A stretch of DNA of 46,537 nucleotides, taken from Candidatus Aenigmatarchaeota archaeon (GTDB lineage Archaea > Aenigmatarchaeota > Aenigmatarchaeia > Aenigmatarchaeales > JACQIB01). The stretch covers positions 1-46,537 of the forward strand of contig JBHIDR010000003.1 in assembly GCA_046760225.1 (NCBI GenBank). The letters are read 5' to 3'. This document shows positions 19,423-37,758 of this stretch, one piece after another (the first letter of the stretch is position 1; each line of letters opens with the position of its first letter). A program made the translations under genes and the position numbers. The notes beneath the pieces were generated by a model. It ran no database searches, was not told the DNA's origin, and was given only the letters and a program-made list of their open reading frames with translations.

Positions 19423-22400
19423 ATGACCAAAAAAATCGACCCAAGGCTTATTCCCGAGGTCAACATAGGTACGGTTGGACACTGAGCAACTTGCGGGTTG
19501 CTTGGCTAAAAACGTGGACCACGGGAAATGCGTTGCATTAGATGAAGATATGTTTATTAATAATAAGCTAATTTCAGGACAGGAATTAATGGACTTAGCA
19601 AAATCTAAAGGGAATATTGTTTTTTCAAAGAAAAATGAATGGCTATACAACATTCCAAATCTTTATACTTATAGTCTTGATTCTGAATTACAAACTGTCA
19701 GAACGAAAGCACAAGTATTTATACAGAAATATGAAGGGCCCATTCTTAAAATGATTACAAAAAATGGTAAAAGTATAAAGGCAACTAAAGAACATCCTTT
19801 GCTAATAAATGAAGGCGGTAATTTAAAATGGAAAAAAATGAAAGAGATTAAAGTTGGGGATTATATTGCTGTTTCGAATTTGGGTACATTCCCTAGTAAA
19901 ATAAAACTTAAAAATAGTTATCTCAAGGAACTAAGAAAAAGGTATCCATTAGTTATGACAAATATTGATTATAACAAACTTAAAGAAAAGACGGGAAACT
20001 TCGTTAATTTCTCTATGTTAAATGAAAAGGAATTTAGTACTTTGCGTATTTTGGGTAATTTTTCTTTAAGAGAAATAGCAAAGGCGACAAATTTTTCTTA
20101 TTCATGGATTCAGAAGGCCCTAGGCCAAAAAAGGAAAACTACAAATAATGTTAAATTAGAACTATCAAAGTTTTTCAAAAGTAATAAACATAGAATAGTA
20201 AGACTTTCTAAAAACGAAATATTGGTTGGTTATAAATCTCGCCATTCTGGAAAAAATTATACTAAATTCAAAAACATAAAGATTATAGATCAGGATATAG
20301 TAAAATGGTTTGCTTTCTTGCACGCAGAAGGAAATACTCATTATAAAAGAATAGTAGTTGTTCAGAAAAATTATCCCGAATTATTAGAAGAGTTTGAAAA
20401 GATATCTAAAAGCATATTTGGAATTGAATCTAAAATCGCATTCGGAAATAATGATGTTAAAAGATGTGAATTATATTCAAAACCGTTTATTGAATATATA
20501 TGTTTAAGGTTTGGACTTAAGATTGGGGCATCAAAGAAATCGCCTATTTGTAACTGGATACTTTCTCTGCCACCAAACCTTCAAGCTTTATTTCTAAAAT
20601 ATTTTTTTGCTTTAGAGTGTGATGTAAGAAAAAATTCAATAAAAATAACTCAAATTAATAAAAGAAATATAAATATTATCTCTACTATCTTGCACAATTT
20701 TGGAATAGAACATCACCTAAAAGAGGGTGTAAGAAAGAATCGTAATATAGAATATAGTTTACGCATAGAAGGAAAGCACAACCTTAGAAGATTTATAGAA
20801 AAAATAGGTATTTATGATAAAAACAAATCGAGAAGAGTTAAAGCGTACCTAAAAACAATTAAGCCTACAAACCCACCATCATACTCACTTGTTCCGATAA
20901 ATCCGAACATCTTGATGGAACTTTCACAAATTTTACCTAATTTCACTCTTAAAGAAAACTATTACTATTATGCGAATGGAAAGATAACCAAAATTAGATT
21001 AAATAAGATAGTTAAGGATATCGCTTTATGGTTGAAAGAATCGGAGAAGCTTAAAGATAAGGGAGATTTATATACTATAGTTAAAAATTTTAAGATTCCT
21101 CAAACAACATTAGCAAGAAAAATCAATTCTTCAAAATCTATAGTTAATAAGATACTGAAAAATAAATACAAAAACAAAATTGTAAGGAGCAAGTTAAAAG
21201 ATACTATAAAACAGTTGGCAGAAGATAAAACTAAAAGAACTGAGATTATTTATCAAAACCTTAGTTTGTTAGCATCTCCTTTGATACGTTGGGATAAAGT
21301 AAATAGAATAGAACACTTGCATTATAACGACTATGTTGTTGATTTGTTTGTACCAAAGTATCATAACTTCGTAGGAGGATTTGGTGGTATAGTATGTCAT
21401 AACAGCACCCTTATAGAAGCAATTTCTGGCCGCTGGCCTGCCCTGCATTCTGAAGAGCTGAAAAGGGGAATCACAATAAAGCTCGGTTATGCTGATGCAA
21501 CAATATACAGGTGCCCGAAGTGTGAAAAGACGCTGAGCACAGACAAGTGCCTTGGCTGCATGGAAAAAGCAGAGCTGTTGCGCACAATCTCCTTTGTTGA
21601 TGCTCCTGGGCATGAGACACTCATGGCAACTGTGCTTGCAGGTGCCAGTTTGATGGATGGTGCACTGCTCATAATTGCTGCAAATGAGAAATGCCCTCAA
21701 CCGCAGACAGCCGAGCACCTCATGGCACTTGACATCAGTGGGATAAGAAATATCATAATAATCCAGAACAAGGTAGATCTTGTTGATGAGGAAAAAGCAA
21801 TGGAGAACTACAAGCAGATAAAGGAGTTTGTGAAAGGAACTGTTGCAGAGAACGCACCCATAATACCTGTTTCTGCGCAGCAGAAGATAAACATAGATTC
21901 TGTTCTTGAGGCAATACATAAAATCATGCCCACACCAGAAAGGAAGCCAGAAGCAAACCCAAAGATGCTGGTTGTGAGGAGCTTTGACATAAACAAGCCA
22001 GGTACAGAACCACCAAAGCTCAATGGTGGGGTTCTTGGTGGTGCAATAATAGAAGGAAAGCTTAAGAAAGGTGATGAAATAGAGGTTGCACCAGTAAAGA
22101 TAAAGGACAAATGGCGCAGCATCACAACAAAGATAAAGGGCCTGCAGAAGGCAGGCAAGAACCTTGATGAAGCAGGGCCAGGAGGACTGGTTGGGGTGAT
22201 GACAACACTTGACCCAAACCTCACAAAGGCTGACTATCTTGCAGGCAGTGTTGTTGGCCTGCCTGGCAATCTTCCCTCAATCTCAAACTCCCTGAGATTT
22301 GAAGCACATGTTTTCGAGGGAATACAGCCCATAAAGATGGGAGAGCTGCTCATGATAAACGTGGGTACATCCAGGACAGTTGGGGCTGTGGATTCAATCA

Positions 22401-22522
22401 AGAAAGGAATTGTTGAGACCAGCCTGAAGCTGCCTGTTGTTGTAAGTGCTGGTGAAAGGGCTGCAATAAGCAGGAGACTTGAGGACAGGTGGAGGCTAAT
22501 CGGCTGGGGAATTCTTAGGTAG
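19423..22522 (+). CDS. eif2g: Translation initiation factor aIF2 gamma; join(19423..19480,19512..22522), contains an intein; mature ~397 aa
   Basis: MTKKIDPRLIPEVNIGTVG-H-VDHGK/STL, HSEELKRGITIKLGYA, FVDAPGHE, QNKVD, RWRLIGWG. Confidence 0.95.
19481..19511 (+). other. 31-nt BHB-type mRNA intron in aIF2-gamma
   Basis: TTGG AC^A CTGAGCAAC TTGCGG GTTGCTTGG CTAA AA^A CGT: central helix TTGG/CTAA, 9-bp inner stem, in-frame TGA 19483-19485. Confidence 0.9.
19529..21403 (+). mobile_element. Intein (625 aa) with LAGLIDADG-type endonuclease in aIF2-gamma P-loop
   Basis: GK/CVALDE start, ATKEHPLL block B, FLHAEG motif, ...GIVCHN/S end; strongly AT-rich. Confidence 0.94.
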
Positions 22523-24941: not shown

Positions 24942-25002
24942 ATCTACAGCACCAATTTCTTGATATCCCGCGATGGCTTAGTCTGGTAGAGCGACCGGCT
25001 GT

Positions 25003-25653
25003 GCGGTGAGAAAGCATGACGACACTAAAACCTATAATAGAACAACAAGGTACAGTTTCAGAAGCAAAGGCTAGAATATTGGCGAACCTCAAGGCTGATG
25101 GAAGTACATGCAGAAGCGGTACGAACTATACAAAAAAATATGAGGTACGTGATGCCGAGCAACTTAATAGGTTTGCCAAAGACCTGAAACATGTATATGG
25201 GCTGAACATAAAGCGCATGCTTAACACATCAGGAATAACAGGAATGCCCATAGAAGCTGTATACCTTAGGTCCAAATTAGCATTTGAAGATTTGCAGAAA
25301 TTTGGACGCTTCAGGTCAGAAGACTGGAATGTACCTCAGCAGATAAAAAACTCTTCCAAGCAAGTTAAGGCCGCCTTTTTAATGGCCTTTTTTGATGACG
25401 AAGGATCTGTTATCAAATCGAGAAGGGAAATACGCCTTTACTCGATAAATATTGATGGCCTTAATGAAATAGCAAAGCTGCTTGAAGAGTTTGAAATAAA
25501 GTGCAGTATACGAAGTGGTTATGGAAAACGAAGAAATGTGTTTGCCATTATAATTCGTGGCGTAGAAAACCTTGAGAGGTTTTCAAAACATATAGGTTTT
25601 GGTGTTAAGACTAAAAAAAGAAAACTAAAAAGTATGCTTTCCACTGTGGCCAA
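25003..25653 (+). mobile_element. 651-nt relaxed-BHB tRNA intron at 35/36 encoding a LAGLIDADG endonuclease
   Basis: Central helix GGCT/GGCC, 3' bulge AA^A, long closing stem GCGGTG-A-GAAAGCATG / TATGCTTTC-CACTGT. Confidence 0.82.
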
Positions 25654-25684
25654 AGGCGAGCACGCTAAGTGCTTGTTGCGTTAG
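25016..25684 (+). CDS. Intron-encoded double-motif LAGLIDADG homing endonuclease
   Basis: ILANLKADG and FLMAFFDDEG motifs; SD GGTGAG; 214 aa if read from circular intron, 222 aa from precursor. Confidence 0.9.
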   Translation: MTTLKPIIEQQGTVSEAKARILANLKADGSTCRSGTNYTKKYEVRDAEQLNRFAKDLKHVYGLNIKRMLNTSGITGMPIEAVYLRSKLAFEDLQKFGRFRSEDWNVPQQIKNSSKQVKAAFLMAFFDDEGSVIKSRREIRLYSINIDGLNEIAKLLEEFEIKCSIRSGYGKRRNVFAIIIRGVENLERFSKHIGFGVKTKKRKLKSMLSTVAKGEHAKCLLR

Positions 25685-25697
25685 CACTCGCTCGGAA
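25656..25697 (+). other. 42-nt tRNA-Tyr intron at canonical 37/38
   Basis: Inner stem GCGAG/CTCGC, CTG/CGG central pairing, 3' bulge AA^A. Confidence 0.82.
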
Positions 25698-25748
25698 ACC
25701 GGTAGATCGGGAGTTCGAATCTCCCTCGCGGGACCATTTGTGATTTTT

Positions 25749-26830: not shown

Positions 26831-26938
26831 GCCCGGGTAGTATGTCTTGGTGTGGCATTTCACCCGAGAGCTAAAAGTGGTCTAGTATCTCGGCCTGTCG
26901 AGTCGAGGACCTGGGTTCAAATCCCAGCCCGGGCGCCA
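26831..26938 (+). tRNA. tRNA-Asp(GTC) with 32-nt D-arm intron (26844..26875, position 13/14)
   Basis: GCCCGGG/CCCGGGC acceptor, G73, CCA, loop CTGTCGA; intron TAGT AT^G TCTTGG..CCGAGA GCTA AA^A. Confidence 0.92.
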
Positions 26939-32735: not shown

Positions 32736-35209
32736 TAGACCAGATTGATTTCCAATTGCTTTCGCCAACAATGGTAAAGAAGATTGCAAAAGCAGAAATA
32801 ACAAGGCCCGAGCTTTATGACAATGACGGTTTCCCAATAGAGGGCGGAGTAATGGACCCGAGACTGGGCATAATAGACCCTGGGCTCAGGTGCAGGACAT
32901 GCGGACAGACAATAGGAAACTGTTTCGGCCACTTCGGTTATGTAGAGCTGGTAAGGCCGGTTATCCATGTACTGTACTCAAAACTGATTTACAGGATACT
33001 GAGAGTAATGTGCAATGAGTGCTCAAGGATAATCACCACATCAACAACAACAAGACCAAAGAAGTGCACGCACTGCGGTACTGAACAGAAGGCCATAAAG
33101 TTCCAGAAGCCCTACACATTCCTGGAAGATGAAAAAGCGCTGACAACAATGGAAGTCAGGGAGAGGCTGGAAAAAATACCTGACGAGGACCTTAAGCTTC
33201 TGGGCTTCAGGGGAGGAAGACCAGAATGGCTCATAATAACACTCATGCCTGTGCCGCCTGTAATAACCAGGCCATCAATAACCCTGGAAACAGGCGAAAG
33301 GTCAGAAGATGACCTGACGCACAAGCTGGTGGACATAATAAGAATCAACCAGCGACTAAGGGAAAACATTGACATAGGTGCGCCGGACTTCATAATAGAA
33401 GACCTGTGGGAACTGCTGCAGTACCATGTTGCAACTTTCTTTGACAACACCTTATCAGGAATACCTGCTGCAAGGCACAGGAGCGGAAGACCATTGAAAA
33501 CTCTGGCTGACAGGTTGAAATCAAAGGAAGGAAGGTTCAGGCAGAACCTTGCAGGAAAGAGGGTGAACTTCTCAGCAAGAACAGTAATATCACCTGATCC
33601 CTACATAAGCATCAATGAGGTGGGCATTCCGAGGTCCATAGTAAGGGAGCTCACAATCCCATTGAGTGTATGGGAACACAATGTGGAAAAGCTGAGGGAA
33701 ATCATTCTGAACGCGCCTGTATGGCCGTCTGCAAACTATGTAGTAAGGCCTGATGGCAAGAGGAAGAAGATAACAGAAGAAAACAAGGAAGAGGTCGCCC
33801 AGGAGATATCACCTGGCTATATCATTGAGAGGCATGTGAGGAACGGTGACATTGTGCTCTTCAACAGACAGCCCTCACTGCACAGGATGTCCATAATGGC
33901 CCACAGGGTGAGGGTGACACCATGGAGGACATTCACAATGAACCTGTGCGTGTGCCCGCCCTATAATGCTGATTTTGATGGAGACGAGATGAACCTGCAT
34001 GTGCTGCAGACAGAAGAGGCGCGCGCAGAAGCGCGGCTACTGATGAGCGTGCAGAACCACATAAGGAGCCCGAGGTTCGGAGGACCAATCATAGGATGCG
34101 AGCATGACCATGTTTCAGGAGCCTACCTGCTTACAAAGAAGGAAACCGAGCTCTCGAGGAAGGATGCCTTCTACCTGCTTTCCCAGATAGGGGTTGATGC
34201 AGAGCTACCGAGCAAAAAGAAAATATCCGGCAAGGAACTGTTCTCCATGCTCCTTCCGAAAGGACTTAACATGGAATTCAAGGCAAAGGTCTGCGGATGT
34301 GAAAAATGCATAAAGGGGACGTGCCCGAATGACGGTTATGTTGTAATAAGGAACGGAAAACTTGAAAGGGGTGTGATAGACAAGAAGGCAATAGGAAGGG
34401 AGGCAGGAAAGGTCATTGACAGGATTGAAAGGGAGTATGGTACAGAAGAGGCGCACAAGTTCATTGACAGGGTATCACTCCTTGGGATAATTTTCCTTGA
34501 GAAGCACGGATTCACAATAGGGCTTGATGATATTGACCTGAACATCAGCACACTGGAAAAAATAAAAAGGGAAATTGAAAAGGGAGTAGTTGGTGCCAAC
34601 CAGCTGATTGAGGATTATGCCAACAACAGGATCGAAGTCCTGCCAGGAAGGGATGCGAAAGGCAGTTTTGAAGCGCACACACTAAAGCTGCTTGCAAACC
34701 TGACAGACTCGATTGGAAAAATAGTTGCATCAGACCTTGTTGAAAACAGCGCTGTTGTCATGGCAAAATCCGGTGCCCGCGGCCACATAACACACCTTGC
34801 ACAGCTGAGCGGAATACTGGGACAGCAGCATGTGCTCGGTGAGAGAATACACAGGGGATTCAGGGGGAGGACGCTGTCGCACTTCAAAGCCGGGGACCTG
34901 ACCCCGATGGCGCACGGTTTTGTGGTGAGCGCATTCAAGCACGGACTAAATCCGTTTGAATTCTTTTTCAATGTGTTGAGCGGAAGGGAAGGCCTCATGG
35001 ACAAGTCACTGAGGACAAGGCACAGCGGTTATCTGGAAAGAAGGCTGATGAACGCGCTACAGGACCTGAAAGTGGAATATGACGGTACAATCAGGGACAA
35101 CAGGAAGGTCATAATCCAGTTCAAGCCAGGTGAGGACGGCATTGATCCAGCAAAATCAGACTGGGGAGCAATAGATGTTGATGAAATAATAAAGGGTGTT
35201 GCCAAATGA
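32732..35209 (+). CDS. rpoA1: RNA polymerase subunit A' (Rpo1N)
   Basis: CFGHFG, GKRVNFSARTVISPD, YNADFDGDEMN. Confidence 0.97.
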   Translation: MIDQIDFQLLSPTMVKKIAKAEITRPELYDNDGFPIEGGVMDPRLGIIDPGLRCRTCGQTIGNCFGHFGYVELVRPVIHVLYSKLIYRILRVMCNECSRIITTSTTTRPKKCTHCGTEQKAIKFQKPYTFLEDEKALTTMEVRERLEKIPDEDLKLLGFRGGRPEWLIITLMPVPPVITRPSITLETGERSEDDLTHKLVDIIRINQRLRENIDIGAPDFIIEDLWELLQYHVATFFDNTLSGIPAARHRSGRPLKTLADRLKSKEGRFRQNLAGKRVNFSARTVISPDPYISINEVGIPRSIVRELTIPLSVWEHNVEKLREIILNAPVWPSANYVVRPDGKRKKITEENKEEVAQEISPGYIIERHVRNGDIVLFNRQPSLHRMSIMAHRVRVTPWRTFTMNLCVCPPYNADFDGDEMNLHVLQTEEARAEARLLMSVQNHIRSPRFGGPIIGCEHDHVSGAYLLTKKETELSRKDAFYLLSQIGVDAELPSKKKISGKELFSMLLPKGLNMEFKAKVCGCEKCIKGTCPNDGYVVIRNGKLERGVIDKKAIGREAGKVIDRIEREYGTEEAHKFIDRVSLLGIIFLEKHGFTIGLDDIDLNISTLEKIKREIEKGVVGANQLIEDYANNRIEVLPGRDAKGSFEAHTLKLLANLTDSIGKIVASDLVENSAVVMAKSGARGHITHLAQLSGILGQQHVLGERIHRGFRGRTLSHFKAGDLTPMAHGFVVSAFKHGLNPFEFFFNVLSGREGLMDKSLRTRHSGYLERRLMNALQDLKVEYDGTIRDNRKVIIQFKPGEDGIDPAKSDWGAIDVDEIIKGVAK

Positions 35210-37758
35210 AAGTAAAGTCACTCAAAGAGCTGCCACCTAAGCTGCGGGAAGAAGCAAAGGAAAAGATGAAGGCATACAGATTAACTGCAGCGCAAAAGTC
35301 CAAGATCGAGAAAAAGATAATTGAAATGTACAACAAGAGCCTCTTTGAAGCAGGTGAAGCATTCGGCATGGTGGCTGCACAGAGCATATCTGAACCAGCT
35401 ACCCAGATGTGCGTTGACTATGATGAAAATGTGCTGACCAAGGATGCGGGTAGGATTGAAATAGTCAAGGTTGGTCATTTCATTGATCAAAATTTTGAAA
35501 GATTCGGATTCAAGAGGATAGGTGAGTATGAGGTCTGTGACCTGCCCAAACAGCAAAAGCTCTTTGTATTGAGCCTGAACCCAGAAGAGAAGATGGAATG
35601 GAGAAGGGTGATTGCGTGCAACAGGCACGAAAGCCCGGAAACCCTGATTAAAATAACAACAAGGTCTGGAAGGGAGATCACAGCAACAGACTTCCATTCC
35701 TTTGTAATAAGAAAGCACAACAAAATAGTTTCCATAGCTGGAAAGGAACTCAAGGTTGGGGACAGAATCCCTGCAATAAGGTATCTGCCTGAAAACTGCG
35801 CCAGCTTCGTAAACATAGGCGGTTTCCTCCCGCCCCAAATGAAAACCATCAGGGAAGAGGGGCGCATACGTTCTGTGCGAGGGCTGACGTCCCTGCCAGA
35901 GCAGATGACATTGGATGCTGCGTTTGGCTGGTTTATAGGCGCTTATTTGTCCGAGGGCCACTCCACAGGAAGCGAGCTTTGCATCTCCAATATTAACGAC
36001 GAATTCATATCAAATGTTAAGAATTTCTCAGAAGGCCTTAACCTTAATTATAAAGAATTCCTGCATCATAGAGGATTTGCACAAAGCCGTGACTTCAAAA
36101 TAAGGTCAACGCTTTTCTCCAATTTCATCGAAGCGGCATGCGGGACAGGTTCTGGAGAAAAGAAGGTTCCAGATTTCGCTTACAGCGCTGATGAGAGATT
36201 TGTTGCAAGCTTGTTGAAGGGTTACTTCGATGGAGACGGTAATATCAGCGTGAAAAGGAAGATAATCAGGGCATCCTCAAACTCAAAGGAACTGATAGAT
36301 GGAATTGCACTGCTATTAACAAGGTTCGGAATATTCGCCCATAAGACCAAGGACAAGCAATTCGGCCTGCTTATTCCTTATAAATACGCACCGATATTCT
36401 TGTCTAAAATCGGTTCTGACATACCTGAGAAGGGTAAAAGGCTGAAAAGGTTGGCCGAGTTGTCGAAAAGGTTTTGGGATGATTATTCTCAAGACTTTAC
36501 AGACATGATTGGCGGTTTTGATGATGTACTGTACCAGGTTGCAAAGAAACTAAAATATCCGACCAGGTACATCAATAATTTTACCAAGCGTCAAAAAATA
36601 GGCAGGACAGCTCTTCACCGCTACATAAGACTTTTTGAAAGGCTAGCAAAAACAAAAGGTGTTGATATCGGAGGAGAACTCCAAATTTTAAAGCGGATGG
36701 CCAATTCCGATGTGGTTTGGGACGAGATAGCCAAGATAAGGCGTATAAAGCCTTCTTCGAGATATGTTTATGATTTTTCTGTGGAAGGGCTCAAAACCTT
36801 CACAACATTCGATGGGATTGTAACGCACAATACAATGAGAACATACCATGTTGCAGGAGCAGCACAGATAGAGGTGACGCTCGGCCTTCCAAGGATAGTG
36901 GAGATATTTGATGCAAGAAGGAGCCCGAAAACTCCCACCATGACTGTTTATCTAAAGAAGGCCTACAACACAAAGGACAGGGCCTACAAGATTGCTGCTG
37001 ATATCAGGGAAGTCAAAATGAATGATGTTGCTTCTTCATCTTCAATAGACCTTGTAAACGGTCAGATTGAAGTGATGATTGACCTGAAGGAGATGAGGGG
37101 CGCTGGCCTGAGCATGTCCAGGATAGAAAGCGTGCTGAAGGAATCATTGAAGGACGTTGATGTAAGGTCGAGAAAGGGAAGCTTCGTCATCAAACCCAAG
37201 GGAGACTATACTATAAAGGACATACAGAAGTTGAAGAAGAAAGTCCTTGACATGCACCTCAAAGGCCTGAAGGGCGTGTCGCAGGCTGTCATAAACCAGA
37301 GGGAGGGGGACTGGATCATAACCACTCTTGGCAGCAACTTTGCAAAGGTGCTCGGGGTGAAAGGAGTGAACCCTGCAAGGACAATGACAAACAACATCCA
37401 TGAAGTACAGAAGGTGCTCGGGGTCGAGGCTGCGAGAAACGCAATAATCAATGAAGCTGTAAACACGCTAAAGGACCAGGGCCTGGATGTCGATGTCAGG
37501 CACATCATGCTGGTTGCAGATGTCATGGTGGCGGACGGCACAATAAAGGCAATCGGAAGGTATGGGATTGCAGGAGCAAAGGGCTCGGTGCTCGCAAGGG
37601 CGAACTTCGAAGAGACAATCAAGCACCTTACCAAGGCTGCTGTGACTGCTGAGAGTGATAAGCTGGAAAGCATTGTGGAGAACGTTATGATAAACCAGGT
37701 TGTCCCTGCTGGAACAGGCATGTTCGACCTGATTTTCAGACCGCCACAAAAAAAGTAA
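35206..37758 (+). CDS. rpoA2: RNA polymerase subunit A'' (Rpo1C) containing an intein
   Basis: AAQSISEPATQM/TMRTYH, VTLGLPR, GVEAARN, RANFEET. Confidence 0.96.
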   Translation: MKVKSLKELPPKLREEAKEKMKAYRLTAAQKSKIEKKIIEMYNKSLFEAGEAFGMVAAQSISEPATQMCVDYDENVLTKDAGRIEIVKVGHFIDQNFERFGFKRIGEYEVCDLPKQQKLFVLSLNPEEKMEWRRVIACNRHESPETLIKITTRSGREITATDFHSFVIRKHNKIVSIAGKELKVGDRIPAIRYLPENCASFVNIGGFLPPQMKTIREEGRIRSVRGLTSLPEQMTLDAAFGWFIGAYLSEGHSTGSELCISNINDEFISNVKNFSEGLNLNYKEFLHHRGFAQSRDFKIRSTLFSNFIEAACGTGSGEKKVPDFAYSADERFVASLLKGYFDGDGNISVKRKIIRASSNSKELIDGIALLLTRFGIFAHKTKDKQFGLLIPYKYAPIFLSKIGSDIPEKGKRLKRLAELSKRFWDDYSQDFTDMIGGFDDVLYQVAKKLKYPTRYINNFTKRQKIGRTALHRYIRLFERLAKTKGVDIGGELQILKRMANSDVVWDEIAKIRRIKPSSRYVYDFSVEGLKTFTTFDGIVTHNTMRTYHVAGAAQIEVTLGLPRIVEIFDARRSPKTPTMTVYLKKAYNTKDRAYKIAADIREVKMNDVASSSSIDLVNGQIEVMIDLKEMRGAGLSMSRIESVLKESLKDVDVRSRKGSFVIKPKGDYTIKDIQKLKKKVLDMHLKGLKGVSQAVINQREGDWIITTLGSNFAKVLGVKGVNPARTMTNNIHEVQKVLGVEAARNAIINEAVNTLKDQGLDVDVRHIMLVADVMVADGTIKAIGRYGIAGAKGSVLARANFEETIKHLTKAAVTAESDKLESIVENVMINQVVPAGTGMFDLIFRPPQKK
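35410..36831 (+). mobile_element. Intein (474 aa) with LAGLIDADG endonuclease in RpoA''
   Basis: QM/CVDYDE start, ATDFHSF block B, GAYLSEG and GYFDGDG motifs, VTHN/T end. Confidence 0.95.

Follow-up and report, generated by a model that had tools for sequence, protein, structure and literature searches.

Predicted bulge-helix-bulge mini-introns at the same P-loop nucleotide of the aIF2-gamma and aIF5B genes in a Candidatus Aenigmatarchaeota archaeon

The window analysed here is a stretch of 46,537 nucleotides from a Candidatus Aenigmatarchaeota archaeon (assembly GCA_046760225.1, contig JBHIDR010000003.1, positions 1 to 46,537 of the forward strand), whose genome was assembled to 0.85 Mb in 83 contigs and is 83% complete. 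It carries the genes for two paralogous translational GTPases, aIF5B and aIF2-gamma, whose identities were confirmed by Pfam and for neither of which a second copy was found in a protein search of the genome. In both genes the G1 (P-loop) motif GHVDHGK is interrupted by a short insert, and in aIF2-gamma an intein follows the motif. The features of the two genes, all on the plus strand and including the predicted introns with the parts of their bulge-helix-bulge (BHB) motifs, are as follows.

14486..14522, + strand: aIF5B exon 1, 12 codons and the first base of the His codon; letters MAIRSPIVATLG followed by C
14517..14520 and 14539..14542, + strand: two strands of the aIF5B central helix
14521..14523 and 14543..14545, + strand: aIF5B bulges
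14523..14544, + strand: predicted aIF5B intron, 22 nt, BHB type, from RNAfold and frame restoration
14524..14529 and 14533..14538, + strand: aIF5B inner stem
14545..16229, + strand: aIF5B exon 2 to the stop codon; Pfam GTP_EFTU, IF-2, GTP_EFTU_D4
19423..19480, + strand: aIF2-gamma exon 1, 19 codons and the first base of the His codon; letters MTKKIDPRLIPEVNIGTVG followed by the C of His
19475..19478, + strand: 5' strand of the aIF2-gamma central helix (exon UUGG, 4 bp), pairing with 19506-19509 in RNAfold
19479..19481, + strand: aIF2-gamma 5' bulge ACA, with the putative cut between C19480 and A19481
19481..19511, + strand: predicted aIF2-gamma intron, 31 nt; inner hairpin 19482-19491 / 19496-19505, loop 19492-19495
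19506..19509 and 19510..19512, + strand: 3' strand CUAA of the aIF2-gamma central helix and 3' bulge AAA
between A19511 and A19512, + strand: putative aIF2-gamma 3' cut, from the RNAfold bulge
19512..19528, + strand: first part of aIF2-gamma exon 2, His-codon bases 2-3 and then V D H G K
19529..21403, + strand: aIF2-gamma intein, 625 aa, with LAGLIDADG endonuclease domain; Pfam Intein_splicing, LAGLIDADG_3
21404..22522, + strand: aIF2-gamma C-extein to the stop codon; Pfam GTP_EFTU, GTP_EFTU_D2, eIF2_C

Read without splicing, aIF2-gamma starts at ATG 19423-19425, runs through MTKKIDPRLIPEVNIGTVGH (..NIGTVGH) and ends at TGA 19483-19485, a stop already given in the preliminary description of this DNA and here read directly; the long frame reopens within the insert and runs on into VDHGK. 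Likewise, the unspliced frame of aIF5B starts at ATG 14486-14488 and reads ..ATLGHSI before a TGA. Excision of nucleotides 19481-19511 (31 nt) joins C19480 to A19512 and excision of 14523-14544 (22 nt) joins C14522 to A14545, and in both cases GHVDHGK is restored in frame. The N-terminus encoded by exon 1 of aIF2-gamma agrees with the intronless aIF2-gamma of relatives, and exon 1 of aIF5B matches the M.RQPIV..LG common to 23 intronless relatives. Once RNA and protein splicing were both completed, mature aIF2-gamma would have a computed length of 397 aa.

The sequence alone lets the insert borders slide, by up to 2 nt in aIF2-gamma and up to 1 nt in aIF5B. The statement of the preliminary description that both inserts occupy exactly the same nucleotide, namely between bases 1 and 2 of the GHVDHGK His codon, holds because C^A is the 5' joint picked in both genes by the BHB cleavage rule, with a cut after the second bulge base. 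Both inserts also begin with ACT and finish with C(T/C)AAAA, as had been noted.

According to PMC5829648, the BHB motif recognised by the archaeal splicing endonuclease consists of two 3-nt bulges parted by a 4-bp helix. RNAfold returned an identical architecture for the two regions: a 4-bp helix with the 3-nt bulge ACA on its 5' side and the 3-nt bulge AAA on its 3' side, so that in both introns two 3-nt bulges lie on opposite strands with the 4-bp helix between them. In this helix, exon UUGG pairs with the last four intron bases preceding the AAA run (CUAA in aIF2-gamma, CCAA in aIF5B), a perfect intron hairpin adjoins the 5' bulge, and past the 3' bulge the two exons form a weaker helix. 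The inner stems are unrelated in sequence, as first described, and the 6 bp then given for aIF5B were found again, whereas the 9 bp given for aIF2-gamma became 10 bp, three of them G-U, in RNAfold. The canonical cuts (5' C^A, 3' A^A) coincide with the only frame-restoring joints in both genes. For aIF5B in its 74-nt context the fold had a z value of -5.28, and none of 200 shuffles folded as well.

Relatives were searched for a non-His codon preceding VDHGK, a pattern whose counts are lower bounds since introns with other bulges are missed. Within the order, 30 aIF5B loci were fetched, 29 of them from relatives, and the G1 site could be read by regular expression in 24 of these 29: aIF5B lacks an insert in 23 of the 24, the same-genus genome G001 included, and carries a 32-nt insert at the same base in the remaining one (G032). 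In the order the pattern matched at least 5 places, spread over 4 of 42 genomes; in the class it matched at least 38, spread over 36 of 371 genomes, where the reversed control pattern had 4 matches. Introns of the same build, 18-32 nt long, account for 34 of the 38 places in the class, 24 in aIF5B and 10 in aIF2-gamma, in 32 of the 371 genomes; the other four were rejected as unrelated sequences on reading. A further scan across species, using one genome per species and anchoring its pattern at the two splice sites, returned 50 loci, likewise a lower bound. An aIF5B or aIF2-gamma context was found for 32 of these, all in archaeal metagenome-assembled genomes mostly labelled Aenigmatarchaeota, with single records labelled Micrarchaeota, Nanoarchaeota, Iainarchaeum and Hadarchaeota. 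The other 18 were bacterial, without GTPase context, and were taken as chance matches.

Covariation was analysed in an alignment of 36 distinct introns (A1), with the 3' partner slid by 1-3 columns and 500 shuffles as controls. Paired cells amounted to 91.3%, compared with 20.8-41.6% with a slid partner, and 0 of 500 shuffles reached the observed pairing or covariation score; 62 cells had changed on both sides, against a shuffle mean of 16.7. The central helix has all four pairs in 30 of the 36 introns and three of four in the remaining 6, its second pair (12:46) being CG in 30, UA in 6 and broken in none. The inner helix is present in every intron, with 95.3% of its cells paired, and all 5 of its scored pairs show two-sided changes. 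Moreover, the canonical cuts rebuild an in-frame GHVDHGK not only in the two genes of the window but in all 36 aligned introns. One of the introns, L035, is 30 nt long and thus in frame, yet contains a stop codon, so the inserts are not frameshift sites.

The bulges are similarly constant: 35 of 36 aligned introns have AAA as 3' bulge, and 36 of 37 distinct introns have ACA as 5' bulge. The single GCA bulge belongs to the aIF5B intron L119 (G294:C44), where the Gly codon is GGG. Correspondingly, 36 of 37 intron alleles use GGA for the Gly codon, as compared to 1 of 30 aIF5B/aIF2-gamma alleles without an intron. Since codons make up the exon half of the motif, synonymous sites are constrained (GGA for Gly).

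With regard to the machinery, the source genome encodes two paralogous EndA proteins and one RtcB, whose gene is interrupted twice at conserved motifs. Both EndA proteins contain the two Pfam endonuclease domains, and their genes lie about 800 bp apart on contig C2, separated by a 189-aa open reading frame (ORF). Across the order, a genome carries a single EndA gene or a pair of adjacent paralogues, family f3 mostly one and the other families mostly two. Within the order, EndA copy number did not track with intron presence, and introns occur in both groups. That the two inserts are introns at the same nucleotide of paralogous P-loop codons, as the preliminary description proposed, is borne out by the BHB fold, the recurrence, the covariation and the presence of EndA and RtcB genes, and we regard it as highly probable that they are BHB introns removed by EndA, with the exons joined by RtcB. 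In the mechanism that we propose, exon U-Y-G-G, from the Leu/Val-Gly codons, pairs with the intron 3' end C-Y-R-A, giving a central helix of 4 bp; the 5' bulge (ACA) consists of Gly codon base 3, His codon base 1 and the opening base of the intron, and the 3' bulge of AAA; EndA, present as two paralogues, would cut after the second base of each bulge; and RtcB would join the exons and rebuild the His codon of GHVDHGK. Cutting and joining of both mRNAs are thus predictions from comparative sequence data. No Rfam family was found at either intron, and a homing-endonuclease ORF is absent from both, for which 31 and 22 nt leave no room.

Several observations weigh against this reading. The 81-nt aIF2-gamma region gave a z value of only -0.21, with 79 of 200 shuffles folding as well, and a 56-nt region gave -1.48, which is not significant either; since the folding signal of aIF2-gamma is not significant, the case rests on comparison. 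The outer exon-exon helix is imperfect, with one unpaired base opposite the 3' bulge in aIF2-gamma and two in aIF5B, and only 78.7% of outer-helix cells in the alignment are paired, which points to a relaxed rather than a strict motif on the 3' side. Furthermore, the intron-bearing relatives G032 and G027 show one EndA gene only, and PMC5829648 describes the single-EndA type as strict.

Among the other explanations of the inserts, the one that fares best, although we consider it very improbable, is that the insert is retained in the mRNA and that translation starts downstream, for instance at TTG 19475, giving an N-terminally truncated aIF2-gamma. The long ORF does open at TTG 19475, and a gene caller would probably report that ORF. 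The product would, however, be devoid of the first P-loop Gly and of the IPEVNIG segment, which all relatives keep, whereas exon 1 retains an intact ATG and a conserved 19-residue coding sequence; in addition, the same explanation would have to apply to aIF5B and to aEF2, a third GTPase gene with such an intron (see below).

Even less credible is translational bypass, in which the ribosome would leave the message at the His codon CAC before the insert and land on the CAC of the downstream D-H, without any splicing. Bypass of the T4 gene 60 type involves matched take-off and landing codons, a stop directly after take-off and a product in agreement with its homologues. Matched CAC codons do flank the insert in both genes, the stop codon and hairpin of aIF2-gamma come directly after the take-off codon, and the hopped product would still fit the loose pattern [AG]xxxxGK. 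The hop would nevertheless remove from GHVDHGK the V-D-H that all 36 aligned alleles preserve in frame; the stop is adjacent to the take-off codon in aIF2-gamma only and lies two codons past CAC in aIF5B; many relatives have CAT as take-off codon and CAC or CAT downstream, without regular matching; and the 4-bp exon-intron helix and its covariation would be left unexplained. That the genes are broken or the inserts are assembly or sequencing artefacts, as the fragmented source assembly (83 contigs, 83% complete) might suggest, is comparably far-fetched, because inserts of the same build occupy the same base in 32 genomes of the class from many different assemblies, their sequences differ while pairing is kept, and both genes encode essential translation factors, have one copy each and are intact in frame apart from the insert.

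Predicted BHB mini-introns of the same build were also recognised elsewhere in the source genome (G000). They are listed here with their positions.

G000:C46:687-718 (locus L125): aEF2 intron, 32 nt, BHB, after the complete His codon of the G1 motif
G000:C35:1544-1573 (locus L127): first rtcB BHB insert, 30 nt, in frame and without stop, ..HEGY^GFPIGG
G000:C35:1646-1677 (locus L127): second rtcB BHB insert, 32 nt, ..GGIG^YDINCG
G000:C39:3279-3309 (locus L126), minus strand: 31-nt BHB insert in PorA (pyruvate:ferredoxin oxidoreductase alpha-type), within the conserved motif FPITPQ^TEI
G000:C2, approximately 16537-16566 (locus L173): 30-nt BHB insert with stop in Top6B, ..AEFFE^KNRHLLGF

The preliminary description had predicted introns in further translational GTPases, naming aEF1A and aEF2. 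This proved correct for aEF2, where the intron interrupts the same motif, 2 nt downstream of the aIF2-gamma site and with a different exon helix (UCGC) and bulge (AUA), but not for aEF1A: no insert was found in aEF1A or in the EF1A-like paralogue of the source genome. The G1 motif of aEF2 reads SHIHHGK in the source genome, G005 and G027, and 3 of the 42 genomes in the order have the aEF2 intron. In the aEF2 gene of G027 (L129, G027:C25) a stop lies two codons past GK and is followed by a 6-bp palindromic hairpin, which may be a second mini-intron. The gene at L173, which we take to be topoisomerase VI subunit B by its N-terminal motif, has no such insert in the same-genus genome G001. A motif-free comparison with G001 over about 560 kb, blind to introns near gene starts or shared by both genomes, added only the Top6B insert and inserts in rRNA genes.

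Genome-wide scripted BHB scans returned 1111, 323 and 101 frame-merging candidates and were too noisy for a census; no bulge triplet was clearly enriched in them, and candidates were kept only if a recognisable conserved motif was rebuilt. A ribosomal P0-like gene (C2, about 44.5 kb) and a DNA polymerase B gene (C31, about 1.7 kb) were rejected as intron hosts, both reading through sensibly unspliced.

With respect to structural RNA genes, a compact BHB (GCGG / GUA bulge / hairpin / CCGC / AAA bulge) occurs in two copies on the minus strand of G000:C4 and G000:C12 (script indices 13895 and 17033 on the reverse complement); both copies lie at the junction of a tRNA acceptor stem with the D-arm and may be non-canonically placed tRNA introns, close to base 8/9. 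ARAGORN called no more than 21 tRNAs for the genome, and the introns of many are odd. One of its calls is a tRNA-Tyr with a 693-nt intron at 24967-25736 of the window, whose internal ORF (25016-25684) has a LAGLIDADG domain and which would be a classical mobile archaeal intron; Rfam does not call tRNA-Tyr at 24967-25736 but does call another tRNA at 26862-26935. The 16S rRNA gene (G000:C1, about 43-47 kb, L175) is split into two Rfam pieces, which are separated by about 1.7 kb and of which the first contains about 870 extra bases, and the 23S rRNA gene (G000:C8, about 17 kb, L174) shows short insertions when compared with G001; the extra sequences are probably rRNA introns.

As to the origin of the intron pair, we lean somewhat towards the introns of aIF2-gamma and aIF5B being one family, with DNA-level copying from one paralogous G1 site to the other. 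The exon bases next to the inserts, which supply half of the motif, are nearly identical in the two genes. Three reciprocal-best intron pairs cross the genes (L033-L034 within a single host family, L050-L060 and L061-L081), and a GUGA..UCAC intron type is shared by four genomes of one host family, three having it in aIF5B and one in aIF2-gamma. Additionally, among the 36 introns only the two of the source genome have C:G as their first inner pair; since other mini-introns of this genome begin differently, C:G is not demanded by the local enzyme. Independent gain of the introns of aIF2-gamma, aIF5B and aEF2, the invariant G1 DNA supplying the BHB exon half and tolerating insertion of any hairpin, is a serious alternative to which we assign a chance a little short of even. 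It is favoured by the different site, exon helix and bulge of the aEF2 intron and by the presence of mini-introns in the unrelated genes of RtcB, PorA and Top6B, and fits poorly with the reciprocal-best pairs, with the occurrence of the GUGA..UCAC type in both genes within one host family and with the C:G pair confined to the source genome's two introns. Against copying, on the other hand, those two introns share only the parts demanded by the motif, their inner stems being unrelated, as independent gain would have it, and the apparent similarities across genes rest on hairpins of 20-25 nt under shared constraints. The preliminary description had offered transposition between paralogues or a shared target preference: transfer is hinted at, but by short hairpins under the same structural constraint, and either may apply.

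The G1 site is also occupied by inteins. In aIF2-gamma the intein follows GK of the P-loop directly, 17 nt downstream of the intron, with borders GK|C and HN|S, and its GC content of 28% as compared to 47% in the C-extein makes it look recently acquired. Besides its mini-intron, aEF2 also has a LAGLIDADG intein after GK at a similar spacing; the two inteins are about 21-24% identical, so neither appears to be a recent copy of the other. An intein adjoins 2 of the 3 G1-site introns in the source genome and 2 of the 10 aIF2-gamma introns in the class, aIF2-gamma of G180 (L058) having an intron and a Cys directly after GK; intronless HVDHGK-Cys sites number only 2 in 371 genomes, as an absolute count. 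These observations hint at a possible intron-intein link. A more specific proposal, which we regard as speculative and rather unlikely, is that the P-loop DNA of translational GTPases is a shared landing site for two kinds of selfish element, LAGLIDADG inteins after GK and endonuclease-less BHB mini-introns upstream, either via co-conversion, in which mini-introns would spread between species and between aIF2-gamma, aIF5B and aEF2 with the repair of double-strand breaks made by the intein endonuclease, or via protection, in which mini-introns would be kept since splitting the DNA target of the endonuclease shields the gene from intein invasion. Elsewhere in the window, an RNA polymerase A''-type subunit gene (35206-37758) carries an intein with a LAGLIDADG domain.

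Among known systems, the BHB intron of cbf5 pre-mRNA, with which studies by Watanabe in 2002 and Yoshinari in 2006 are reportedly associated, lends itself to comparison. In PMC2738675, cbf5 is given as the sole gene with confirmed archaeal pre-mRNA splicing, its intron being hosted by Crenarchaeota (Desulfurococcales and Sulfolobales). The cbf5 intron resembles the present ones in its patchy spread among related species, implying gain and loss, and differs from them in that its splicing was experimentally confirmed, whereas splicing is here deduced from sequence. Furthermore, cbf5 encodes a pseudouridine synthase and the present host genes encode translational GTPases, the organisms concerned are DPANN (Aenigmatarchaeota) instead of Crenarchaeota, and here the same codon is occupied in two paralogues and the same motif in a third gene. 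The predicted introns of aIF2-gamma and aIF5B would work like the cbf5 intron but fall outside the cbf5-type set, their host genes being others.

Copying of BHB introns is said to have been described by Fujishima et al. for the Thermoproteales, where related tRNA introns at several sites of paralogous genes were reportedly read as the result of transposition. Those introns lie in tRNAs at differing sites, while the introns considered here lie in protein genes at the same conserved codon, and the evidence for copying is weaker here. With the BHB introns of archaeal tRNAs and rRNAs, canonical and non-canonical, as treated in PMC5829648, the present introns share the two 3-nt bulges, the 4-bp exon-intron helix, the cuts inside the bulges and the same enzymes, and with the tRNA introns of the source genome they share compactness and the AAA 3' bulge; by contrast, the substrate is an mRNA, the exon half consists of codons, and the 3' side is relaxed. 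Literature searches, which covered titles and the beginnings of abstracts, returned nothing on introns in aIF2-gamma, aIF5B or aEF2 or on BHB introns of protein genes in Aenigmatarchaeota. Taken together, the conserved BHB intron pair is real, with a predicted mechanism of a known kind in host genes and a lineage that are new.

If this is true, protein synthesis in this archaeon hangs on the tRNA-splicing enzymes: three translational GTPases would need the tRNA-type splicing machinery before they could be translated, as would the splicing ligase, a pyruvate-oxidoreductase subunit and topoisomerase VI-B, and RtcB must splice its own message. The dependence would extend to roughly one species in eleven of the class (32 of 371), and gene callers will mis-start or truncate these essential genes. 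Finally, the patchy distribution across paralogues offers a tractable case for the gain of simple introns and for the interplay of introns and inteins at one site.

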